Origin: a virus
DNA length: 17,578 nt
UHGV virus genome: UHGV-0086244
Strand: one strand, 5' to 3'
Below, piece after piece: positions 2,767-16,238 of the stretch (within the stretch, counting starts at the first letter, position 1; every line of letters starts with the position of its first letter). Below the pieces are notes generated by a model. It was not told the DNA's origin and made no database searches. It saw only the letters and a list, made by a program, of their open reading frames with translations. The translations under genes were made by a program, and so were the position numbers.

Positions 2767-2939
2767 TTATCTTCCTCCTGTTTCATATATCTAGGGTCAG
2801 ATGCTTTAGGCTGGGTGATGCTATGCTCAATGGAGAAGCCGGACGCGCTCCATGTTGATTTGCCAGTTTGAGCTATCGTGACAACACATTCATTATTGTC
2901 GATGTTAACTTCGCGCAGCACTGGTAACTGTGAATTCAT
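2763..2939 (-). CDS. Small hypothetical protein (58 aa), translationally coupled to the downstream 210-aa gene; candidate antitoxin or partner
   Basis: Hand translation: MNSQLPVLREVNIDNNECVVTIAQTGKSTWSASGFSIEHSITQPKASDPRYMKQEEDK; AGGAG RBS 7 nt upstream of the ATG; stop TGA overlaps the next ATG. Confidence 0.5.
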   Translation of the reverse strand: MNSQLPVLREVNIDNNECVVTIAQTGKSTWSASGFSIEHSITQPKASDPRYMKQEEDK

Positions 2940-3101
2940 TTTCTAACTCCTGTTTAATGTTGACACCGCATTTATGCTGTCACGACACAATTACTTTCTA
3001 TCCTGCTGTGATGCTGCTGACAGCGGCATCCAATACCTTACCTTCTCAGCATTCTGCAAAATCGATGACGAGTCATGACCGGTTCGCGTAGCTCAGTGAA
3101 A

Positions 3102-3710
3102 TTACTGCAACCTTTCCTGACGGAAATATGGTAACACTCGACTCCACTTATCATCCTGCCAAGGCTGGAATTTTACATGTGCCGTTTCTCTGGCGAGGAT
3201 TGCTCGCGCTCTGTTGAGTATCTGGGGATATTCTTGCTCGATAGAAGTAAAGCGACCGGCTTCGCGGTGCTCCGCGACCTGAAGAAGTGGAGTAACGTTC
3301 TGGCAGGCAGTTAACATCACATCACTTGCTCGCCATAACCAAGCAAGTGTGCAAAGTTCGTTATCAGTGAATTGTTTTGTGATTGGGAATTGTTGAATTT
3401 CTCGATCGAGAAGATCCAGCACCCAGCGGCGGAATTCTTTGGCCACAGGAGTACGAGCAAACATGGCGATCAAATGGGCTCCGCGAAGGCTAAATACTCG
3501 AGACTCCTGCATTCCACGAGGGGTGGTCACTTTGACCACCCTTGTCATCAGATCTGTGAATTCATCTGAGTGCCGAGAGTAAATGCGCTGAACTGCTTTA
3601 TCGTCCGCATATTCCAGTGCTAAACCAACTTCAGTGGCAGTAAGCCAAATTCTGTTATTGTGGCAAATCGGGGTAAACGTCGTTTTGTGGAATGCTAATT
3701 GAGTAGTCAT
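3102..3710 (-). CDS. Bro-N / KilA-N-like DNA-binding protein (202 aa), putative antirepressor
   Basis: N-terminal pattern FTPICHNNRIWLTATEVGLALEY...RGAHLIAMFARTPVAKEFRRWV resembles the Bro-N domain consensus (I-R-x-x-x-G-x-x-W-F-x-A-x-D-V-A-x-x-L); GAGGTGA RBS upstream of the ATG at 3710. Confidence 0.55.
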   Translation of the reverse strand: MTTQLAFHKTTFTPICHNNRIWLTATEVGLALEYADDKAVQRIYSRHSDEFTDLMTRVVKVTTPRGMQESRVFSLRGAHLIAMFARTPVAKEFRRWVLDLLDREIQQFPITKQFTDNELCTLAWLWRASDVMLTACQNVTPLLQVAEHREAGRFTSIEQEYPQILNRARAILARETAHVKFQPWQDDKWSRVLPYFRQERLQ

Positions 3711-3734
3711 AGTATCACCTCATCAGGTTAACCA

Positions 3735-3767
3735 TCACCACCAACGACGCCAATCGACTGGTGGTGA
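3735..3767. promoter_or_regulatory. Inverted repeat (caccacca-N15-tggtggtg) just upstream of the Bro-N gene RBS; possible operator or 5'-UTR structure
   Basis: Read directly from the sequence: tcaccaccaacgacgccaatcgactggtggtga. Confidence 0.3.
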
Positions 3768-3865
3768 ACTGTGTAAGGTTGGCGTAACCGGCTACTCAAA
3801 CCCGGCGCTTCCGAAGAAGCCCTCACACAGCCCACCATAATTTGGGCATAGCCGTGCTTAGCGCA

Positions 3866-3888
3866 CAAAAAAACCGCTTAACGCGGTA
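3866..3888 (-). terminator. Candidate intrinsic terminator on the minus strand (5-bp GC-rich stem ACCGC/GCGGU, loop GUUAA, then U7)
   Basis: Minus-strand RNA would read accgcguuaagcgguuuuuuug; lies about 85 nt downstream of the small hydrophobic ORF 3974..4063. Confidence 0.4.
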
Positions 3889-3973
3889 TGCGTTGAGTAG
3901 TATCCCGGGACGCCAATCCCGTGTGCCGATTTTGCGGCAACGCACAGAATATAGCGCCGGATAAATCATGTCG

Positions 3974-4341: not shown

Positions 4342-5301
4342 TCAGCTAATTGCAAAGATATTAAAAATAACTTTAGGGAGTGCGAAAGATGAAATAAAAA
4401 GCACAACCATAAAAATGGCATGCTTAATAAATGATGAGCTTGTAAAAAAAGCTCCTCCCTTGCTAATCCCTGCCATAAAAACAAAGATAAAGCTAATTAA
4501 GCACGACCATATCACTAACAAAACTGAGATTGACATGCTTAAAGACATATCGCGAGAAAATACGTTTACTGAAATAGAAATGAAAGTAAAGAAAGAAGCA
4601 AATAAAGCAATGACACCCAGCATTGAGTTCCTTGCTGTAATTACTTCCGATTCAAAGCTTTTAACTTTCTCATGTATATCTTTTTCAGCATTTGATAATG
4701 TTGCATCAAATTGCTCAATCTTTGCAGTTTGCTGAGATAATGAAGACATTACCTTACCTATTTTTCTTTTAGTATCATTAATATTCTTTTTGCTCTTATT
4801 CAACTCTTGCGAAAAATTGGTTAGTTGATCATTGATATTTTTCCAGAGGATGTTATCAATATCACTTTTTGTATATTTTTTTACATTCTCTTTATTAAAA
4901 GAAATTGTAGATTCAGAATTATTATTAACAAAGTAATTAGATAAAATGGCATTAGAGACAGTATTATCCATCACCGGCACAGTTGCTTTTGAACTGTATT
5001 TTATAGCTTCATGCAACATTTCTTTTTCATTAACAAAAAGAGAGGTTTTTATTAAGTTTTGTGGTGCCGCGTCTTTGATAGATATACTTTCCCGCTCTTT
5101 ATTTGAAGCTGTTGCAGTTTTATTATCTATCTGCAAATTACTAATTTTTTGTACCCCTCCTGTATACGTAGATGTACTATTCGATACTTGTGAATTAGAA
5201 TAAAGTGAATGATGCGCAGTTCTTTTTGCCATGTCATCGTTGACTATAGCATTATTATTTGCAATTCTTTTTATATCCTTTTTATTATCATCCTTATTCA
5301 T
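4342..5301 (-). CDS. Hypothetical membrane-anchored protein (319 aa): polar Asn/Ser/Lys-rich N-terminal region with probable coiled coil, and about three C-terminal transmembrane helices
   Basis: Long ORF in a strongly AT-rich cassette; GAGGTGG RBS 5 nt upstream; C-terminal hydrophobic segments MLGVIALFASFFTFISISVNVF, ISVLLVIWSCLISFIFVFMAGI and AIFMVVLFISSFALPKVIF. Confidence 0.65.
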   Translation of the reverse strand: MNKDDNKKDIKRIANNNAIVNDDMAKRTAHHSLYSNSQVSNSTSTYTGGVQKISNLQIDNKTATASNKERESISIKDAAPQNLIKTSLFVNEKEMLHEAIKYSSKATVPVMDNTVSNAILSNYFVNNNSESTISFNKENVKKYTKSDIDNILWKNINDQLTNFSQELNKSKKNINDTKRKIGKVMSSLSQQTAKIEQFDATLSNAEKDIHEKVKSFESEVITARNSMLGVIALFASFFTFISISVNVFSRDMSLSMSISVLLVIWSCLISFIFVFMAGISKGGAFFTSSSFIKHAIFMVVLFISSFALPKVIFNIFAIS

Positions 5302-5315
5302 TCAGCCACCTCACA

Positions 5316-5981
5316 TTACTGAATTTCATTCACTTTACTTAAAAAGGCTTTTTTTGTTTTTTCTGCGGTATATTTATCTTTAAATATAAAACTCTCGATT
5401 GTATTCACATCGATCTGTTTCACTAGCATTGGTTGTTCTCTGACAAGATCATATCCTGACATAATCGACAAATGACAATTAAATATGGACTGCTCAAACT
5501 CGAATTTTTTATTATACATTAAATTAATATCTTCAATTATTTCGCTATCATTCTGCATGTTGTTACTAAGATAGTTTTTAACAATCTCTTTGTTTGGGTT
5601 GTTGTTTAATTCCGCCTTAACGGCCACCAAGCCTATTCTGATAATATCCTTATTGAGTTCTTTATGGATATCAACCACACTATCGAAAACTTCTTGAAAC
5701 AAATGTAAGTCTACCTCTTGCTCAGAATCCATACGTTCAAAAAACAAATCACATCTCTGCAGTGAGCATTGAACTCTAAATTTATTATCTATAGAAAACA
5801 ATTGGAGACGAGGAATCTCTGGTGGGGTATCCATAGGTAAAACGCCCAACATCATATTGTTTGTTAATTCAATACCTGCCTTCTTTTTAAAAGTTTGCCT
5901 AATAAAATACGACATTCCATCGAAATCGACAGTCGTTGATGAATCGTAAAAAAATACCATTTGTAACTGTATGATTTTCAT
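5316..5981 (-). CDS. Hypothetical soluble protein (221 aa), first gene of an AT-rich two-gene cassette; start codon uncertain
   Basis: Long ORF 14 nt upstream of the 319-aa gene on the same strand; no recognisable motif; AT-rich codon usage unlike the flanking lambda genes. Confidence 0.55.
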   Translation of the reverse strand: MKIIQLQMVFFYDSSTTVDFDGMSYFIRQTFKKKAGIELTNNMMLGVLPMDTPPEIPRLQLFSIDNKFRVQCSLQRCDLFFERMDSEQEVDLHLFQEVFDSVVDIHKELNKDIIRIGLVAVKAELNNNPNKEIVKNYLSNNMQNDSEIIEDINLMYNKKFEFEQSIFNCHLSIMSGYDLVREQPMLVKQIDVNTIESFIFKDKYTAEKTKKAFLSKVNEIQ

Positions 5982-6133
5982 CCTATATTCCAGGTTTCAG
6001 CAATGTAAATTTGGCGCATTATTCTAGCTTACAACAGCAACATTTTTGAAGGGCTTTGCTAAAACTTTTATTCCCAGTGGCATTAATTTCAACCAATAGA
6101 ACCTGAACAGAAAAAAACATAAAAATCAATGCA

Positions 6134-6856
6134 TTATTTCGAAATCTTTTTATATAATGCTTTTCCCCCTTTCAGCCCAAACTTAGCTTTGATTTCTGCG
6201 ATCTTCGCCAGAGCCTGTGCACGATTTAGAGGTCTACCGCCCATGACAGGAAGTTGTTTTACTGGTTCAGGTATAGCCTCACCACGGTTAATTCGTGCGG
6301 TCATACAGGACAGTTCATCGGCAGCCTTGCGCCGTAATTCCGCGTCAGTCAACGCATTGGCCCGCATGTTCTGATACAGGTTGGTAACCAGCCAGTAGTG
6401 CGCGTTTGATTTCCACGGATAAGACTCTGCATCCGGATACAGCCCACGCTTCCGGCAATACTCGTAAACCATATCAACCAGCTCGCTGGCGTTTGGCAGC
6501 CCGGCGGTAACGGATGCTTCTTCCCGGCACCAGGCAACAAACTGCCCGGGTGATGGCAGGAATGGTCGATTCTGCCGACGGGCTACGCGCATTCCTGCGT
6601 TAACCTGTTCCATTGTGGTGATCCCGTTTTCCCGGAAAGCCAGAACCCACTGGCGGCGGATTTCGTTCAGTTCATTCTGGTCACGGTTAGCCAGGCTCGC
6701 CGGGAAAGTTGCCAGTAACTGCCTGAACACACCGTTGATGATCTGCGCTACCTGCTGTACCTGTGGCTTTTCGTCGTACTGTTCCGGCATGTTGTTGGCG
6801 ATCCGGCGCATCTGCTCACAGTCAAAGTTAACCATTTGTGCGGCGATGTTTTTCAT
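6134..6856 (-). CDS. P: Replication protein P (DnaB helicase loader), lambda-type with a divergent C-terminal tail
   Basis: Protein MKNIAAQMVNFDCEQMRRIANNMPEQYDEKPQVQQVAQIINGVF... matches lambda P from memory until about the last 10 residues; start overlaps the O stop (ATGA). Confidence 0.95.
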   Translation of the reverse strand: MKNIAAQMVNFDCEQMRRIANNMPEQYDEKPQVQQVAQIINGVFRQLLATFPASLANRDQNELNEIRRQWVLAFRENGITTMEQVNAGMRVARRQNRPFLPSPGQFVAWCREEASVTAGLPNASELVDMVYEYCRKRGLYPDAESYPWKSNAHYWLVTNLYQNMRANALTDAELRRKAADELSCMTARINRGEAIPEPVKQLPVMGGRPLNRAQALAKIAEIKAKFGLKGGKALYKKISK

Positions 6857-7782
6857 AAATCCACCCCATAAATCCAGTCAGTGTTTGTCAGGTCCAGTTT
6901 TGATTTTCCGGCTGTCACTCCTGCCTGTTGCTTGTTACGGTTGATTTCGAGCTGGGTCCACTTGTCGCGGAGTTTGGCCGGACTTAGCACGTTACCGGAC
7001 CAGAAGTTGTCCTGGCATGCCCAGCGGAACAGCACGCACATGTCGCGGTGGTTACGTCCGTCACGTTCACGCATCAGGCGGATATCGTTAGCCCACCCTG
7101 CAAAATTCGGTTTTCTGGCTGATGGCGCGATGGTCTTCACCATGTCAAACATCCACTCTGCGGCGGTCAGGTCTTCTGCTGTCCCCCACTTGCTGCCGCT
7201 CTGAATTGCAGCATCCGGTTTCACCACAGGAAGATCGTTTTCTGGTTGGTCAGAGGATTCGCCAGAATTCTCGGACGAAAAAGGTTTTATATTGTCTTTT
7301 GTTAGTTTGTCTTTTGTGTTTACCTGATTCGGGTAAACGCCTTTACCTGATTTGGGTAAACTTTTTTTACCTGATTCAGGTAAATTTACCTCTTTCAGGT
7401 AAACTTTATTTTTCTTACCTGATTCGGGTAATGTTGACCATTCACTGACCACATTATTAATGCCGGTATTCCGCCCGCTCTGAATAAAAATCCCACGCTT
7501 TACCAGAACACTTTTTGCAGCAGAACACTTGTGCGGCAATATCCCGGTTAATTCGGAAAGTTGCTCGTTGCTAACCCAATCCAGTTTTTTATTAAAGCCA
7601 TATGTTTTGCGCATGACAGCCAGAAAGACCAGAAGCTGGTGCTGTGTTAATCCGGCCAGCATCACAGCTTCCAGCAACTCATTTGCAATGCGCGTATAAC
7701 CATCATCGAGATCTGCCACGCGCGGCTCCTTTTGTGCCGCATCCGGCACTGGAAAATTGAATATCTCAGCAGTGTTTGCCAT
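6853..7782 (-). CDS. O: Replication initiator O (chimeric: non-lambda N-terminal iteron-binding domain, lambda-like C-terminal domain); start placed at internal ATG 7782
   Basis: C-terminal half (HSGESSDQPENDLPVVKPDAAIQSGSKWGTAEDLTAAEWMFDMVKTIAPSARKPNF...) matches lambda O from memory; GGAGG RBS before the ATG at 7782; N-terminal MANTAEIFNF parallels lambda O MTNTAKILNF; the origin iterons lie inside the gene. Confidence 0.9.
   Translation of the reverse strand: MANTAEIFNFPVPDAAQKEPRVADLDDGYTRIANELLEAVMLAGLTQHQLLVFLAVMRKTYGFNKKLDWVSNEQLSELTGILPHKCSAAKSVLVKRGIFIQSGRNTGINNVVSEWSTLPESGKKNKVYLKEVNLPESGKKSLPKSGKGVYPNQVNTKDKLTKDNIKPFSSENSGESSDQPENDLPVVKPDAAIQSGSKWGTAEDLTAAEWMFDMVKTIAPSARKPNFAGWANDIRLMRERDGRNHRDMCVLFRWACQDNFWSGNVLSPAKLRDKWTQLEINRNKQQAGVTAGKSKLDLTNTDWIYGVDL
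7318..7434. repeat. Replication origin: five 17-bp iterons (TACCTGATTCGGGTAAA-type, each with inverted ends TTTACC/GGTAAA) with an adjacent AT-rich tract at about 7285..7320
   Basis: Direct repeats at about 7321, 7344, 7368, 7387 and 7416; located inside O as in lambda ori; AT-rich segment on the side expected from the lambda arrangement. Confidence 0.8.
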
Positions 7783-7868
7783 AATTCCTCCCGCAATGAG
7801 TGTGTTACGATTTGCACCTGAAAGTCGGTTCTGTTCCAGCAGACCGGCTTTCGCCATTTCTGAACCTG

Positions 7869-8414
7869 TCATATCGCCCCCAGCATGGTAGTAACCATCG
7901 CCATCAATGGACCAGCCAGATCTGGGTCCACACGAAACATCGACACAATACCTTCACTAATTTCCTTCAGTTTCTGGTGGCGTGGTGCGTTGAGAATGAC
8001 AGCCTGTTTTGCCTCACTGAGTTCCTTTTCCATTTCAGCCAACCTAGCCATGAAGCTATCCTGCTCAACCAGGTAACCGCGATATTCCAGCGGTAGTACC
8101 GCCAGAATTGCCGGGGTCAGTTCACGCACGTTATTTCGGTATTTTTCAGAATCGAATTTGTTATCGAGGAAGCGGAACAGCTTCTGGCGTGCACGGCTGA
8201 CATCATCAGGGAAATCGATGGTGCCGCCGCCCTGCTCCCGATACTCATTCACAATGAGTGTGGCAACGACATCCTGATTATCTTCAGCCGACCAGGCGCG
8301 GACGGCATCACGAATTTTTTCGTGGCCTGGCACCTGTTTTATTTGAGAACGATTTATCACCGCAGTCGGGCTAAATCCGCTAGTCTGTTGGTATGTAAGT
8401 GGTTGCATAATCAT
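7869..8414 (-). CDS. Hypothetical regulatory protein in the cII position (181 aa), possibly a CII-like / CP76-type or YdaT-like regulator
   Basis: Position between cro-like and O, same strand; much longer than lambda CII; family assignment is from memory of gene-order patterns only. Confidence 0.45.
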   Translation of the reverse strand: MIMQPLTYQQTSGFSPTAVINRSQIKQVPGHEKIRDAVRAWSAEDNQDVVATLIVNEYREQGGGTIDFPDDVSRARQKLFRFLDNKFDSEKYRNNVRELTPAILAVLPLEYRGYLVEQDSFMARLAEMEKELSEAKQAVILNAPRHQKLKEISEGIVSMFRVDPDLAGPLMAMVTTMLGAI

Positions 8415-8438
8415 CGCCTTATCAGTTAACGCCGCAGA

Positions 8439-8666
8439 TTAGGCGGCAGAATTACTCGCGTTAAACAATGGTGCGAGGTCGGGACGAATATCTGCTGGCT
8501 TAATCTTTCCACCAGTGGCTGAGACAATTTTCATTACATAGCGGGCATCAATTCCGCCACCGTGTAGCCAACGCCAAACAGTGGGCTGGGCTACACCGCA
8601 TAGATCTGCCAGTCGTTTTTGACTACCTGTAATACTGATTGCGAGTTGAATGGTTTGATTTGTCAT
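8439..8666 (-). CDS. Cro-like small HTH regulator (75 aa from the ATG at 8666)
   Basis: Small ORF divergent from the repressor gene; HTH-like segment GSQKRLADLCGVAQPTVWRW; AGGA 9 nt upstream of the ATG; immediately downstream of the pR-like promoter. Confidence 0.65.
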   Translation of the reverse strand: MTNQTIQLAISITGSQKRLADLCGVAQPTVWRWLHGGGIDARYVMKIVSATGGKIKPADIRPDLAPLFNASNSAA

Positions 8667-8697
8667 TATCAATTCCTATTGGTATTACAATGAATGG

Positions 8698-8726
8698 ATA
8701 ATAGCAATGCGTATTAACCATGGCAA
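8698..8726 (-). promoter_or_regulatory. pR-like sigma70 promoter for the cro-like gene (-35 TTGCCA, 17-bp spacer, -10 TATTAT on the minus strand)
   Basis: Hexamers read from the reverse complement; both overlap the two operator-like 16-bp sites. Confidence 0.5.
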
Positions 8727-8740
8727 TAGCAAAACGTGTT
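8700..8740. promoter_or_regulatory. OR-like operator pair: two 16-bp sites AATAGCAATGCGTATT (8700..8715) and AATAGCAAAACGTGTT (8725..8740), 25 bp centre to centre
   Basis: Same AATAGCAA-N4-T(A/G)TT motif recurs twice at the pL-like region with identical spacing. Confidence 0.55.
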
Positions 8741-8767
8741 TTGACCATCAATACGCAAGCGTATAAA
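8741..8767 (+). promoter_or_regulatory. Candidate pRM-like promoter for the repressor (-35 TTGACC, 15-bp spacer, -10 TATAAA), overlapping the 14-bp palindrome ATACGCAAGCGTAT
   Basis: Hexamers seen in sequence; the short spacer is suboptimal; would give a near-leaderless cI mRNA starting close to the ATG at 8777. Confidence 0.3.
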
Positions 8768-8776
8768 TTAAAACTT

Positions 8777-9469
8777 ATGAAAAAAGAAACTCTTGCTGAT
8801 CGCTTAAACCTAGCGATGGAACAATCTGGGATGTCTCAAGGCGCTCTTGCAAAGGCGTCTGGCGTAGCTCAACCCACAATCTGGAGACTGACAAGCGGCA
8901 ACGCGCGCGGCTCAACAAAAATTGTTGAAATAGCTAATGCATTGGGTGTTCGAACAGAGTGGCTCTCATCAGGCATAGGCCCGATGAGAAATGACGGTCA
9001 ACAATCAGGGAAGCCTACTGTCAACCATTCCAAATACTTCAAGATTGACGTTCTTGATATAGAAGTGAGTGCCGGGCCGGGAGTCATCAACCGTGAGTTT
9101 GTAGAAGTCCTACGCTCGGTTGAGTACTCGTTTGACGATGCTCGTCACATGTTCGATGGCAGGAAGGCGGAAAATATCCGCATCATTAACGTACGTGGTG
9201 ACAGCATGTCAGGAACAATCGAACCAGGTGATCTGCTGTTCGTTGATATCACGGTTAAATCTTTCGACGGTGATGGCATCTATGCGTTTCTGTACGACGA
9301 CACAGCCCATGTAAAGCGCCTGCAAATGATGAAGGATAAGCTGTTGGTTATCTCTGATAACAAGAGCTACTCACCGTGGGACCCGATCGAGAAAGACGAG
9401 ATGAACCGGGTGTTCATTTTTGGGAAAGTCATCGGGAGCATGCCGCAGACCTACAGGAAGCATGGGTAG
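8777..9469 (+). CDS. cI: CI-type prophage repressor: N-terminal XRE-family HTH and C-terminal S24 (LexA-like) autopeptidase domain; not lambda cI
   Basis: HTH segment LADRLNLAMEQSGMSQGALAKASGVAQPTIWRL; C-terminal VRGDSMSGTIEPGDLLFVD ... K motif typical of S24 peptidases; the longest ORF starts at 8720 but would overlap the pR-like promoter, so the ATG at 8777 is preferred. Confidence 0.85.
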   Translation: MKKETLADRLNLAMEQSGMSQGALAKASGVAQPTIWRLTSGNARGSTKIVEIANALGVRTEWLSSGIGPMRNDGQQSGKPTVNHSKYFKIDVLDIEVSAGPGVINREFVEVLRSVEYSFDDARHMFDGRKAENIRIINVRGDSMSGTIEPGDLLFVDITVKSFDGDGIYAFLYDDTAHVKRLQMMKDKLLVISDNKSYSPWDPIEKDEMNRVFIFGKVIGSMPQTYRKHG

Positions 9470-9592: not shown

Positions 9593-10615
9593 ATGAAAGA
9601 TAACAGACAAAAAGTCGTTCATTATAAAAAAGCAGTAATCCCACACAGCAAATCATCATTACAAAACATACTACTTAGTATTATAGGTGAGGGCGGCGTT
9701 GCAGAAAAAGTACTTAGTAGACAAGAAAAAATAACACCTTCAGATGAAAATTCGGGGTATCGTTTCTTAAATAAAAGCGACACATACAAAACTATACTTT
9801 TTGGGCAACTGGTTTTATTTGAAAAAGACAAAAGCCAGTCTCTATTAGAGCTTAGTGATAATGTTAAATTTTATGACATTAACTCCATCACGTCTAATGA
9901 TATAATTATTGATGGAGATAAACGTAGTGACAAAAAAAGAGAGTTTGTAGATTCAATTTTATATTTTGGTGTACTAAACAACCATGTCATGATCGTTCAA
10001 TCCACATCGCTTCGAGCAAGGGAGCTTGAGGCGCATTTGAATTGGCTAATTAATACATTCACAGATGAAAAAGAATCTGTGTTAATGCTTCAAGATAAGC
10101 CATCCGAAGAAACGATGAAAAAAATGGAGAAAGCACCAGCCAAGAGCATAAAAATTGGTGGATTACCCATTACTTCAGAAGTTAAAAATTCAGAGAACCA
10201 AACACCCTCCTTTTCAAATGGTTCGGTGAAGACAATAAAATACCGCCCAATAGGGAAAGGAGGTGCGCTACTAAAAGCATTTTTTGGCGATAACTGGGCA
10301 AATGATATAAACATTAAAGATTCATTAGATGAGGCCAATTTACAAGTAAGCCTCGAGATTACATACTTCAGAAAAACAAATGATAGCGGTCAAGCTGTTA
10401 TAGACAGTATTGCTACCTCACTACGACATCTAGATGAGGATGATATTAGCATCAAACTTCAAGGCGGTGGGGAAATAACGGGAAAAGAGATAAAATTATC
10501 CGGAAAAATTAGCGTTGAACATAACAATGGCATTATTGATGAAAATGATTTATTCTTAAAAATGCATAAGTGGCTGTTCTCAAAACTTGATGCCGGAGAA
10601 TTGGTTGCAAAATAA
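9593..10615 (+). CDS. Hypothetical soluble protein (340 aa) occupying the rexA position; candidate sensor of a RexAB-like exclusion module
   Basis: Long ORF immediately downstream of cI on the same strand, in an AT-rich block; no recognisable similarity to lambda RexA from memory. Confidence 0.6.
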   Translation: MKDNRQKVVHYKKAVIPHSKSSLQNILLSIIGEGGVAEKVLSRQEKITPSDENSGYRFLNKSDTYKTILFGQLVLFEKDKSQSLLELSDNVKFYDINSITSNDIIIDGDKRSDKKREFVDSILYFGVLNNHVMIVQSTSLRARELEAHLNWLINTFTDEKESVLMLQDKPSEETMKKMEKAPAKSIKIGGLPITSEVKNSENQTPSFSNGSVKTIKYRPIGKGGALLKAFFGDNWANDINIKDSLDEANLQVSLEITYFRKTNDSGQAVIDSIATSLRHLDEDDISIKLQGGGEITGKEIKLSGKISVEHNNGIIDENDLFLKMHKWLFSKLDAGELVAK

Positions 10616-10636
10616 CCTACCAAAAGGAGGGCGATA

Positions 10637-11143
10637 ATGAAATCGAACATCATCCACCTTATTGGTATGTTGGTCTTCTATTTTGCTGGTTACTTTTTGT
10701 TCAAGTCAGCATTGGGCTATATTACACCGGGTGTTGTCCTAACAGCTCCGTGGGCTGTGGTTGGACTCATGCAATTGCCATTATCATATTGTATACAAGC
10801 CATTTTTAAGGCAAATGAGGCCAATGACCACTCGTCTTTAACCCCTAGTGAGGTTAGGCGATTAGTGCCAATAGTCAAATCCAAGAGACTGAAATTGGTT
10901 TTATTATTAGCTTTCTATGTATTTTCAACTTTGTTTGTAATCTTGGGGTTAATAGCAAGCACAAATGATCAAGCCCTACTCTTCAGGGTCTTAAAAATTT
11001 CAGGTGGATTACTCTTTATTTCTCTCTATACCAGTGTATTCGTTCATAAAATAATGGTTGAGCTTCAAGAGTTTAAAGCGTTATTAAACCGAAGAGAATC
11101 AGAGAAGAAGGAAAGAGAGTCACTCCTTGATAGATTAAAATGA
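10637..11143 (+). CDS. Hypothetical 4-TM membrane protein (168 aa) occupying the rexB position; candidate membrane effector
   Basis: AGGAGG RBS 7 nt upstream; four hydrophobic segments (IIHLIGMLVFYFAGYFLF, VVLTAPWAVVGLMQLPL, LVLLLAFYVFSTLFVILGLIA, LLFISLYTSVFV); charged C-terminal tail; followed by a strong terminator. Confidence 0.65.
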   Translation: MKSNIIHLIGMLVFYFAGYFLFKSALGYITPGVVLTAPWAVVGLMQLPLSYCIQAIFKANEANDHSSLTPSEVRRLVPIVKSKRLKLVLLLAFYVFSTLFVILGLIASTNDQALLFRVLKISGGLLFISLYTSVFVHKIMVELQEFKALLNRRESEKKERESLLDRLK

Positions 11144-11153
11144 CCCCCCCCTC

Positions 11154-11180
11154 CCCGGCCGTCGTGCCGGGTTTTCTTTT
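11154..11180 (+). terminator. Intrinsic terminator after the rex-slot module (stem CCCGGC/GCCGGG, loop CGTCGT, then TTTTCTTTT)
   Basis: GC-rich hairpin followed by a T-tract on the plus strand, directly after the stop of the 168-aa gene. Confidence 0.75.
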
Positions 11181-11305
11181 GCCTCCCCTCATCACACACC
11201 GTTCAAAAAACCACCATAACCCCCGCTTCAGTTATCGCTATGCGATGCAAGTCACAAAATTAATTCCTTTTGCTATCAAACAGTTAATATCAAAATACAT
11301 CAATC

Positions 11306-11346
11306 AATAGCAATAAGTATTGATATCACCAATAGCAATAGCTATT
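11306..11346. promoter_or_regulatory. OL-like operator pair: AATAGCAATAAGTATT (11306..11321) and AATAGCAATAGCTATT (11331..11346), 25 bp centre to centre
   Basis: Same 16-bp motif and spacing as the OR-like sites at 8700..8740. Confidence 0.55.
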
Positions 11347-11348
11347 AT
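11320..11348 (+). promoter_or_regulatory. pL-like sigma70 promoter (-35 TTGATA, 17-bp spacer, -10 TATTAT) overlapping both OL-like sites
   Basis: Hexamers and spacing read directly; oriented towards gam-bet-exo-xis-int as lambda pL. Confidence 0.55.
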
Positions 11349-11624
11349 CACCATGTCGCAACAACACAACGATACGGCAACCACCTGATTCGCCGTTGCG
11401 ATGACCGCTTAGATCCGCAGCTTGAATTTCAGCAGGCTCCGGGGAGTGCGAGGGGTGAAGCGGACGCGTGAACGTCGGTGTGACCAGCTGAAATCAACTC
11501 AACACTTCATACCTCAGTCGCTTCAACGAGGCGGCTTAGTTATGACAACCGGCGGCCTCCACCGCCTGAATACGCGCAGAAGTCTCTATATGTTCAGCAG
11601 CCCAGCTTACGGGCAGGAGTTTTT

Positions 11625-11831
11625 ATGGTTCATCAACATTACGGAACTCAGACCGTTAATCGCGGTGCCGTCCGGCCAGGTATGCTGGTTAAACACAAAG
11701 ATGGTACCTGGACGGCATCAGCTAATTTGCGCGGTCGGCTTTACTTGCATCGCGGCATCGAACGAACGTACACAAAAGATTTGCTCGTGGAGGTTTACCT
11801 GAATGTTACTGGCGGTGGTCTGAGCCACTAA
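11625..11831 (+). CDS. Hypothetical protein (68 aa), first ORF downstream of the pL-like promoter; not recognisably N-like
   Basis: ATG preceded by AGGAG 7 nt upstream (gggcaggagtttttATG); no Arg-rich N-terminal motif. Confidence 0.4.
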   Translation: MVHQHYGTQTVNRGAVRPGMLVKHKDGTWTASANLRGRLYLHRGIERTYTKDLLVEVYLNVTGGGLSH

Positions 11832-11835
11832 CTAC

Positions 11836-12150
11836 TCACTTGTTTGGGCCGTGTGGAGCCAAAGCAAATTCAAGGTTGTAGATACTCCCATCAGGGGCTT
11901 TGAAATCAACCTCAAACCGAGATGGCGGATTGAATGGATCGAGTACATTTTCTGCTACGCATGTAGATCTCCAATTGATATGGCCTTTGCCAAGCGAGCG
12001 AGATTCCCACCAAGCTCTCCAGGTCTGGTCTTGCGGTTGATCACTCCCCTTTTCCCTTACATACCAATGATTCTTTTTCGACTGCTTACCCATTTCTGCG
12101 GTTGGGTACATCGGAGAAGACTTTAACTTATCAATCAGCATTCTAGACAC
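11836..12150 (-). CDS. Hypothetical protein (about 101-104 aa) encoded antisense to the pL operon; likely start at ATG 12141
   Basis: Protein-like hydrophilic composition, unlike the overlapping plus-strand ORF; AAGGTG RBS before the internal ATG (MLIDKLK...). Confidence 0.4.
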   Translation of the reverse strand: MSRMLIDKLKSSPMYPTAEMGKQSKKNHWYVREKGSDQPQDQTWRAWWESRSLGKGHINWRSTCVAENVLDPFNPPSRFEVDFKAPDGSIYNLEFALAPHGPNK

Positions 12151-12279
12151 CTTATTTATCAGATTTTGAGCAAGACATAGTGTGATCCAACATTTTGATT
12201 AATCAAGCGAGTTCATTCAAACAACTATGCAGTTAACGCACTGTCTGGATCCGCACATCAAAATTTCAGGAGTTTATCC

Positions 12280-12576
12280 ATGAACGCTTATTACATTCAG
12301 GATCGTCTTGAGGCTCAGAGCTGGGCGCGTCACTACCAGCAGATCGCCCGTGAAGGGAAAGAGGCAGAACTGGCAGACGACATGGAAAAAGGCCTGCCCC
12401 AGCACCTGTTTGAATCGCTATGCATCGATCATTTGCAACGCCACGGGGCCAGCAAAAAAGCCATTACCCGTGCGTTTGATGACGATGTTGAGTTTCAGGA
12501 GCGCATGGCAGAACACATCCGGTACATGGTTGAAACCATTGCTCACCACCAGGTTGATATTGATTCAGAGGTATAA
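12280..12576 (+). CDS. gam: Gam (RecBCD inhibitor), short 98-aa form only
   Basis: Protein [60 protein letters not shown]... matches the C-terminal 98 aa of lambda Gam from memory; upstream frame has no in-frame ATG and differs from lambda. Confidence 0.9.
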
Positions 12577-14679: not shown

Positions 14680-14777
14680 ACATGAAAAGCAAAATCATCA
14701 GGGAGCTACAGGCTCCTTTTTTATTATTCGCATTCACCCTCAAGCGTATTAACCAACAATTCAGGGATTAATGGAAG

Positions 14778-15209: not shown

Positions 15210-15812
15210 TCATTCAGTATCATCACGCGCGGTCTGTGCATATGTCACTACCGCACCTAATATATTAATTTTCTTTTCAACATAGATAATATTATCGTAC
15301 TCATAATTGCCATACGGATAGCAAATGCGAATATTCTCATGTAGATCGGGGTCATCCACCTCAGCTCCAGAACAACTTTTTGAACTACCGGAAGTATACC
15401 GATACGGTGCAACATAAGACGATGTCTCTCCAGGCAAAAAATAAGTTAGTGTCGTAAGGGGTATAATCAGAAAAAATCCAGCAAATATGCACATCCCTGC
15501 ATAAACCTTAAGGTATGCTGACAGACTCTTCCAGCCTCTTTGTTTTACTATCCCCTTCTTAACCCAAAACAGAGATAACAGAAAAGCTATTCCCATGCTA
15601 AACAGAATGTAATAGTGGGATATACTCTGATTAAGAAACGTGACCCTGTAGATATCTGCCCGCCACCAGAAGAAAAGGAAAATAAAGATCAGCCCTGAAA
15701 CTGTCATGCAAATCAAATAAGGATACGAATCTTTTTTCATGTTTAGCGCCCATAAAATTTTTCCTGACCCGGACAAATTTACCATCCATTTTTTGCGCAG
15801 AAAATAGCTCAT
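15210..15812 (-). CDS. Hypothetical inner-membrane protein (200 aa, about three TM helices plus a roughly 75-aa soluble C-terminal domain); moron in the ea22/ea8.5 position
   Basis: AT-rich ORF antisense to the pL operon; hydrophobic segments YLICMTVSGLIFIFLFFWW, YYILFSMGIAFLLSLFWV and VYAGMCIFAGFFLIIPLTTLTYFL; start codon uncertain. Confidence 0.6.
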   Translation of the reverse strand: MSYFLRKKWMVNLSGSGKILWALNMKKDSYPYLICMTVSGLIFIFLFFWWRADIYRVTFLNQSISHYYILFSMGIAFLLSLFWVKKGIVKQRGWKSLSAYLKVYAGMCIFAGFFLIIPLTTLTYFLPGETSSYVAPYRYTSGSSKSCSGAEVDDPDLHENIRICYPYGNYEYDNIIYVEKKINILGAVVTYAQTARDDTE

Positions 15813-16054
15813 TACTTACTGCACAATAATACACAAAATTGCGTAAATTTTTTGCATGGATTTTAGCTCTTTCAGCCGACATTTAAGGGGTAAATAGCAT
15901 TTCCTAAAAGCAACTGCACCAACCCAACAGAATGGGCTACCGCTTACGTTGAGAGCAAAAAAGTGTATAGCAGCAATGAACAGCATCCTCGCACTGACGA
16001 GGATTTCTTTTATCTGAACTCGCTACGGCGGGTTTTGTTTTATGGAGATGATAA

Positions 16055-16222
16055 ATGCACTTCCGAGTCACAGGTGAATGGAATGGAGAACCATTCAACA
16101 GAGTTATCGAAGCCGAGAACATCAGCGACTGCTATGACCACTGGATGCTGTGGGCGCAGATAGCACATGCAGACGTAACCAATATTCGAATTGAAGAACT
16201 GAAAGAACACCAAGCCGCCTGA
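16055..16222 (+). CDS. Small protein upstream of xis (55 aa, MHFRVTGEWNGEPFNRVIEAENISDCYDHWMLWAQIAHADVTNIRIEELKEHQAA), lambda orf55-like
   Basis: Hand translation; GGAG about 9 nt upstream; position matches the small ORF adjacent to xis in lambda. Confidence 0.5.
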   Translation: MHFRVTGEWNGEPFNRVIEAENISDCYDHWMLWAQIAHADVTNIRIEELKEHQAA

Positions 16223-16238
16223 TGGCGGTTTTTTCTTG
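16213..16238 (+). terminator. Intrinsic terminator-like hairpin (AGCCGCC-UGAU-GGCGGUU followed by UUUUCUUG) between the 55-aa ORF and xis; tL3-like
   Basis: GC-rich 7-bp stem with a T-tract on the plus strand, overlapping the stop of the 55-aa ORF. Confidence 0.55.

Follow-up and report, generated by a model that had tools for sequence, protein, structure and literature searches.

A very common lambdoid left operon of Escherichia coli without N or put, and the two-hairpin RNA motif upstream of its kil gene

Accounts of early gene control in lambdoid phages usually invoke the N protein of lambda or, exceptionally, the put sites of HK022, in which antitermination is achieved by RNA alone, through the beta-prime zinc-binding domain of RNA polymerase and with no protein factors. 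Here we describe a left operon that has neither. It lies in the virus genome UHGV-0086244, of which the whole stretch analysed (17,578 nucleotides, nt; hereafter the window) carries the immunity and early region of a Bievrevirus-type lambdoid prophage with phages 4A7 and Perceval among its relatives. The window holds a lambdoid left operon that lacks both N and put and is very widespread in E. coli: of 5426 complete E. coli genomes, 2223 (41%) have a match to its module of pL promoter, leader and kil gene, among them ST131, NC101 and O157 strains. Like lambda, it has the order cI, rex slot, pL, kil, gam, bet, exo, xis, int and carries terminators inside the left operon, but N, nutL, nutR and cIII are all lacking. 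The leader of kil contains a conserved RNA motif of two hairpins, which was not found in the pL-to-bet region of lambda, in Rac or in the parts of HK022 examined.

The early region and the search for N, nut and put

The map of the window runs opposite to that of lambda. On the plus strand, its left operon and the region before it contain the following features, after which come gam, bet, exo, xis and int.

8720-9469, plus strand: cI, followed by two genes in the rex position
11154-11180, plus strand: intrinsic terminator closing the operon of cI and the rex-position genes, 5' of pL; GC stem CCCGGCCGTCGTGCCGGG followed by TTTTCTTTTG
11305-11321 and 11330-11346: two OL operator repeats of 17 nt each (repeat family D3)
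11320-11348, plus strand: pL-like promoter, TTGATA, 17-nt spacer, TATTAT (10/12 match to the consensus), overlapping the operators
11356-11505, plus strand: leader A, the 5' half of the leader, lineage-specific and without detectable structure
11506-11624, plus strand: leader B, the 3' half, a shared module
11507-11545, plus strand: hairpin 1, in which invariant UCAUACC/GUUAUGA closes a variable inner stem of 8-10 base pairs (bp)
11551-11566, plus strand: hairpin 2, GGCGG, loop CCUCCA, CCGCC
11574-11624, plus strand: rest of the shared module, with the block GCGCAGAAGUCU (11574-11585), a small hairpin (GCCC/GGGC) and AGGAG
11625-11831, plus strand: kil, 68 amino acids (aa), first gene of the pL operon

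The OL 17-mer is found again at 8699-8715 and 8724-8740, in the pR/pRM region beside cI, and repeats at both pL and pR are the pattern expected of operators. Judging from the position of the promoter, the pL transcript would start at about 11355, leaving about 270 nt, with no conserved open reading frame (ORF) inside, up to the kil ATG at 11625. The same succession of cI, rex-slot genes, pL, leader, kil and gam is repeated in 4A7, Perceval and an O157 prophage. The leader was compared across 16 phages, 80 IMG/VR loci and 29 genomes of other species (individual loci are given below by their L numbers).

The first gene of the operon matches phrog_294 over residues 1-67 (E 9.8e-35) and has AGGAG 6 nt upstream of its ATG, with the Shine-Dalgarno sequence at 11615-11619. 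Among relatives the protein is 76-91% identical at a DNA identity of about 75%, which denotes strong purifying selection, and an alignment of eight homologues has 46 invariant columns. Kil is annotated in 4A7 and Perceval, and the Pfam KilR family matches the homologues (precomputed matches). By family, then, the 68-aa gene is Kil, a predicted FtsZ inhibitor, an annotation that goes back to the Kil proteins of phi80 and Rac. The protein has no arginine-rich motif. The minus strand carries the pR operon, in the order Q (448-50), rusA, ninB, an Ant module, P, O, and then the promoter-proximal genes.

8726-8698, minus strand: pR promoter
8439-8672, minus strand: cro-like gene of the YdaS family (Pfam YdaS_toxin, 1e-14; phrog_35)
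7869-8414, minus strand: YdaT-family gene in the cII position (Pfam YdaT_toxin, 9.6e-30; phrog_163)

An earlier note on this DNA, made from the sequence with no database searches, had described much of this layout, and on these points our analysis agrees with it: a pL-like promoter followed by a leader of roughly 270 nt, a 68-aa ORF with a good ribosome binding site and no arginine-rich motif (now identified as Kil by profile search), and a gap of some 24 bp between the cro-like and cII-position genes with no space for nutR (we measure exactly 24 nt). Its further statement that N is unrecognisable is borne out by every search that we made. Similarity to N, Nun or phi80 N was found in no window ORF with Pfam, PHROGs or tblastn, and tblastn with the N proteins of lambda and phi80, with Nun of HK022 and with gp38 and gp40 of HK225 returned only E values of at least 0.48 in the window. 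The boxA sequence YGCTCTTTAACA, with up to two mismatches, has 2 matches in the window against 3.2 expected, none of them in the leader.

The put sites are a conserved two-stem RNA of about 75 nt with the core GUCGAACGGCGCGAC...GGCGGGUUCAGGAUGAACGGCAAU. At the gathering threshold, Rfam reports only C4 and isrK in the window, both outside the leader, and in E-value mode over 11140-12300 it gives chance matches only; Rfam has no put family and detects nothing on the HK022 and HK639 loci. We built a put covariance model, R1, from seven putL or putR sites of HK022, HK639, CobraSix, S9-5, phiEt88 and UPF_BP1. Run with filters off, R1 has its best match in the window within bet, at 8.2 bits (E about 0.61), with nothing in the leader, and on the minus strand from 6100 to 8700, where putR would be sought, there is no match. 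As a positive control, the model finds putL at 97-101 bits in four prophages of Siccibacter, Cronobacter turicensis and Enterobacter bugandensis, all outside its seed (L103, 922-999; L104, 342-419; L124, 4187-4264, minus strand; L127, 4068-4145, minus strand). L103 and L104 combine putL with the two-hairpin motif, and L124 and L127 combine it with a 101-aa gene convergent with kil that is also present in the window. A model that scores about 100 bits on independent prophages and at most 8.2 bits in the window indicates that HK022-type put is absent from both window operons.

In other N-less, kil-first prophages (L092, L094, L099, L112, L114, L115, L116, L021 and L090; hosts Leclercia, Atlantibacter, Buttiauxella, Pseudocitrobacter and Citrobacter) we observed a second conserved structured RNA lying directly after pL, about 100 nt after its -10 element. 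It reads ...ACGAACCACC-CAGGCAKGRMGCC-CACGAAGUAGC-[covarying hairpin]-GAUGAGGUGG..., shows compensatory changes at four pairs, has no Rfam entry and is a candidate for a new pL-proximal regulatory or antiterminator RNA. The class has no match in the window. The suggestion of the earlier note that the phage may use a put-like RNA element is not supported by either search; an unrecognised mechanism of antitermination may exist, but nothing that we found points to one.

The two-hairpin motif and the rest of the leader

The two halves of the leader differ sharply in kind. In the window the motif of hairpins 1 and 2 folds with z = -4.07, its minimum free energy structure being identical to the centroid, and six other variants fold with z = -2.95 to -4.73. 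When 13 copies are aligned with MAFFT, which is blind to structure, 92.6% of cells pair and five pairs show compensatory changes; none of 500 shuffles attains these values, with slid controls at 29-51%. The exact 28-nt core, which includes hairpin 2, is carried by at least 120 IMG/VR contigs, and at least 12 different inner stems occur among these contigs, all of which fold alike. A motif model, R2, a sequence-driven detector only (its structure string is one column off on the 3' side), finds a single copy in the window, at 11503-11573 (81.8 bits, E 5e-16), and none in the pR operon. The motif has no Rfam entry. The remainder of the shared module, 11574-11624, is kept in KO-TP1, HK639, CobraSix and L105, and with a nucleotide diversity of 0.015 it is the least variable part of the leader.

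The closing stem of hairpin 1 encloses an invariant AUG at 11542-11544. The upstream open reading frames (uORFs) that start there range from 10 to 146 aa and differ in sequence, and the GCGCAGAAGUCU block is read in all three frames, which places the conservation at the level of RNA rather than peptide. We considered the leader peptide MTTGGHPPP as a conserved entity and rejected it: the peptides differ in L103, L104, L107 and CobraSix, and the hairpin is kept. The loop of hairpin 2 is CCAUCCA in nearly all relatives, and the window is one A short (GGCGGCC-TCCACCGCC, about 11557-11558). This A is present in all 10 loci that share the window's insertion between kil and gam, described below; its loss may reflect either a genuine mutation or an error of sequencing, and it shifts the frame of a uORF that is otherwise in frame with kil.

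An arginine-rich frame with a TTG start (11422-11802, 126 aa) overlaps this region, and we weighed it as a possible short analogue of N. No Shine-Dalgarno sequence precedes it, and the form seen in the window is due to a one-base deletion found in almost no relative. Among 42 related copies, 30 have the frame running on in frame into kil, giving 136 aa, and in others it ends after 16, 31, 40 or 50 codons. Since the reading frame is broken or re-phased in relatives, we do not regard it as a gene, in line with the earlier description of its remainder as non-protein-like. The 139-aa Kil annotated in Perceval (L001, 4266-4685) arises because an open leader frame joins kil in frame; the frame of such an N-terminal extension is broken in many relatives, and the extension is absent where a terminator precedes the motif. 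The conserved form of Kil is the 68-aa one.

Leader B is not peculiar to the window's family. It also stands 5' of the kil cluster in phi80, HK225, Klebsiella phage KO-TP1, Enterobacter phages, HK639, CobraSix, and prophages of Siccibacter and Citrobacter. Nearly all motif copies outside the window's family, including that of every named phage and those of the Siccibacter and Citrobacter prophages, have an intrinsic terminator immediately 5', the exceptions being two IMG/VR contigs in which the upstream hairpin has no T run. This terminator is of the tL1 type. In phi80 it comes after the annotated N gene, and in HK225 and KO-TP1 after different first cistrons; in HK639, CobraSix and the Siccibacter prophages the genes before it are under put control. 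The window's family has neither these upstream cistrons nor the terminator, and 150 nt of weakly constrained sequence link pL to the motif. Because the motif coexists with N and with put, and does so behind the first terminator, it does not substitute for either, and we conclude from its placement that it is not the missing antiterminator. The earlier note had singled out the leader as a candidate antitermination RNA. A structured RNA is indeed present, at 11507-11566, but it is one that phages with N or put also possess. In the HK639 record (L117) two terminators are annotated in this region, of which one (1605-1633) overlaps hairpin 2, with a T run only 7 nt further on, and the other (1679-1700) is canonical.

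Leader A, for its part, is confined to Bievrevirus-like prophages in the comparison set. Its folding is that of shuffled sequence (z = -0.01; +0.20 for the whole leader), and in an RNAalifold analysis of 42 close relatives the changes in the leader are one-sided only, with no compensatory ones in leader A. Its nucleotide diversity is 0.029; third codon positions of kil and gam have 0.055 and the spacer between these two genes 0.038, so that constraint on leader A appears moderate at most, at about half the synonymous rate. It accommodates 5-nt and 8-nt indels and many substitutions. In the O157 relative the first 40 nt or so have been exchanged together with pL, the shared block beginning at about 11390, and this mosaic boundary is sharp across differing pL/operator (immunity) types. 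C-rich, G-poor stretches occupy 11356-11400 and 11476-11560. At about 11494 the pentamer TCAAC varies in copy number (AAATCAACTCAAC), four related sequences having one more copy in the C-rich stretch.

How the operon may be transcribed

Any account of the operon has to deal with its intrinsic terminators. The terminator scan found none on the plus strand between 11171 and 14105, so that kil, gam, bet, exo and three small genes should be reachable directly from pL. Beyond that interval lie the following.

14700-14718, plus strand: first strong terminator of the pL operon, 8-bp stem and T6, conserved in the O157 relative
16016-16035 and 16212-16231, plus strand: further terminators before xis

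In the pR operon, P is separated from Q by the isrK terminator (3887-3873).

The reading that we consider most likely, with a confidence only a little better than even, is that no dedicated antiterminator is needed for the proximal left operon, the shared motif being a cis regulator of the kil cluster. On loss of the repressor, transcription would pass directly into kil, gam, bet, exo and the small genes that follow, with no dedicated processive antiterminator, and the shared RNA module would act in cis on the toxic kil cluster, whether by masking the AUG, by setting the processing or stability of the messenger RNA, or by attenuating transcription. Several points weigh against it. Between pL and xis/int there are strong plus-strand terminators at 14700, 16016 and 16212, and in lambda terminators of this kind are passed only by N-modified polymerase. 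A read-through device or separate promoters would therefore still be needed for xis and int, and nothing that we found explains how the three terminators are passed. Rho would be expected to have access to an untranslated leader of 270 nt. Leader A varies less than synonymous sites do, and its block boundary near 11390 is kept across immunity types. What we propose for the motif, finally, is read from its anatomy only.

Attenuation might also be the whole of what the motif does. Its hairpins and C-rich flank would then form a terminator or attenuator cluster, silencing kil in lysogens by partial intrinsic or Rho-dependent termination, much as Rho and NusG reportedly keep kilR of Rac silent. 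The hairpin 2 region is annotated as a terminator in the HK639 record, a T run follows hairpin 2 at a distance of 7-8 nt in HK639 and CobraSix, the motif always has a true terminator beside it where N or put is present, the stretch 11476-11560 is C-rich and G-poor, and Rac has a terminated small RNA of its own, KilS, 5' of kilR. The window's hairpins, however, have no direct U tract (hairpin 2 is followed by UGAAUACG), no terminator was reported at 11500-11600, termination leaves the invariance of UCAUACC/GUUAUGA unexplained, and efficient attenuation in a phage without N would block gam, bet and exo as well. We regard this explanation as unlikely. More doubtful still is that the leader is a new, non-put antiterminator RNA that acts in cis and carries polymerase through 14700, 16016 and 16212, its active part being leader A, either by itself or combined with the motif. 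The site directly after pL is where putL lies in HK022, HK639, CobraSix and the Cronobacter prophage L124, and where other N-less, kil-first prophages hold a different covarying RNA; there are terminators downstream to be overcome; and both the block kept from about 11390 across pL/operator types and the reduced diversity of leader A, about half the synonymous rate, would fit. But the leader resembles neither put nor the second leader class, leader A folds like shuffled sequence without compensatory changes and tolerates 5-nt and 8-nt indels and many substitutions, and the sole well-folded part is also present in N and put phages, where it lies behind a terminator.

A related proposal, in which the leader is a third, not yet described kind of cis-acting RNA that renders polymerase resistant to termination, has only its position to back it, and we think it very improbable. 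Its active part could be the motif, or the motif with leader A, and if it were true the motif behind tL1 in N and put phages would be a second, reinforcing loading site. We give the least credence to a protein antiterminator that has escaped recognition and acts on the leader site, with hairpin 2 in the role of boxB and the factor supplied by a phage gene outside the window, a small unannotated ORF or the host. The stem and loop of hairpin 2 are almost invariant across genera, as for a protein-binding hairpin, and the annotated N of phi80 lacks an arginine-rich motif, so unusual factors do occur in this group. Against this, the window ORFs include no candidate, the motif is present once in the window and not at all in the pR operon, the window's own loop carries a deletion, and the motif coexists with put, which requires no protein. 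Direct transcription of the proximal genes, with the motif acting on kil in cis, remains the reading that we prefer.

Neighbouring genes and comparison with known systems

The segment between kil and gam sets the window apart from most of its relatives.

11832-12279: insertion (moron) between kil and gam, 448 bp
11836-12141, minus strand: 101-aa gene convergent with kil, the two stop codons 4 nt apart (phrog_16212, E 1e-69)
12177-12206, minus strand: candidate promoter of the 101-aa gene, TTGATT, 18-nt spacer, CACTAT, by consensus match only

Most relatives have no insertion, and their kil and gam are about 75 nt apart. The insertion is about 100% identical in 10 of the 80 IMG/VR loci and, at a query coverage of at least 80%, occurs in 28 of the 5426 complete E. 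coli genomes, compared with the 2223 that have the module; such a patchy distribution, between genes that are adjacent in relatives, is that of a moron. The earlier note had seen a protein-like ORF on the opposite strand here, at 11836-12150. Profile search makes it a conserved gene and moves its start: the family comprises 19 protein clusters from Enterobacteriaceae, with identities of 62-99%, and the conserved start is the ATG at 12141 (101 aa) and not the GTG at 12150. Cronobacter and Enterobacter loci have the homologue convergent with kil at the same 4-nt spacing of stop codons, the gene on its other side being variable, and in a Huaxiibacter prophage it lies directly 3' of kil. A promoter-like block, CTTGATTAATCA...AATG, stands 5' of the gene in the window and in L108, L126 and L127, and is shared by three lineages. 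The protein, modelled by AlphaFold with a predicted local distance difference test (pLDDT) score of 74, has no fold match in PDB or BFVD and no Pfam or PADLOC match. No terminator was found on the minus strand from 11836 to 11100, so a transcript of the 101-aa gene would run antisense through kil. The gene appears to be an independent moron.

Other parts of the window also carry accessory genes. Further along the left operon, the segment 15152-16035 contains a minus-strand ORF (15210-15812, 200 aa) with membrane-like segments, flanked by terminator-like hairpins on both strands; phrog_1416 covers its C-terminal part only, and it is another left-operon moron. The rex position (9593-11143, plus strand) is filled by a two-gene cassette of 340 aa (phrog_3482) and 168 aa (phrog_16807), the latter hydrophobic and probably a membrane protein, and the cassette has no Pfam and no PADLOC match. 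The same slot holds a SIR2-family gene in the O157 prophage (L123) and an ASCH-domain gene in phage 4A7, and it looks like a hot spot of defence or exclusion genes. Between P and the nin genes (4342-5981, minus strand) are two AT-rich ORFs of 221 aa (phrog_24110) and 319 aa (phrog_25335, with a hydrophobic C-terminus), without a PADLOC match, which look like a moron or defence cassette. The C4 antisense RNA (RF01695, 74.8 bits, 3842-3757) and isrK (RF01394, 58.7 bits, 3939-3867) sit directly 5' of the Ant anti-repressor gene (3710-3102, minus strand; phrog_245), and the set (3102-3939, minus strand) is an anti-repressor module of the P1/P7/Gifsy type within the nin region. Finally, the O gene holds five tandem iteron-like repeats, TTTACCTGATTCGGGTAAA, at 7315-7431, which presumably mark the replication origin.

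The analysis defines a covariation-supported RNA motif that is widespread, outside Rfam and next to the gene of a toxic cell-division inhibitor, and shows a conserved convergent pair of kil and the 101-aa gene. With a module that has neither N nor put in 41% of complete E. coli genomes, neither textbook mechanism explains how left-operon terminators are read through in a large share of E. coli prophages. Among the genes of this operon are those for recombination and, more distally, xis and int. The closest parallels are the put phages. HK022 and HK639, like the window, have no N gene, and HK639 further shares YdaS-like cro and YdaT-like cII-position genes about 29 nt apart with no put between them, kil and gam in the left operon, and the same two-hairpin motif. 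Unlike in these phages, neither operon of the window holds put, whether by sequence or by structure. In HK639 putL is followed by several genes and by two annotated terminators before the motif is reached; in the window 150 nt of unstructured leader join pL to the motif. The HK639 record also lists an 'M3-like RNA' after the YdaT-like gene (6411-6470), which has no counterpart in the window because YdaT and O overlap there.

The module 5' of the kil cluster is shared with phi80 (X13065) and HK225 as well, at 83-95% identity over about 60 nt and with compensatory changes in hairpin 1. Yet phi80 has a leader of about 410 nt, a boxA-like sequence (CTGCTTTTTAACAA), an annotated N of 98 aa and an intrinsic terminator directly before the motif, and the window has none of these. 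Rac, lastly, resembles the window in its YdaS/YdaT-type immunity region, in having no N, and in a Kil-family gene that follows a region of non-coding RNA, but the sequence upstream of kilR, including KilS and its terminator, is unrelated to that of the window, and the motif is absent. KilS (b4833), a RefSeq small RNA at 2906-3003 of the Rac locus (L122), lies 5' of kilR on the same strand and ends in an intrinsic terminator; it is another non-coding element guarding a kil gene.

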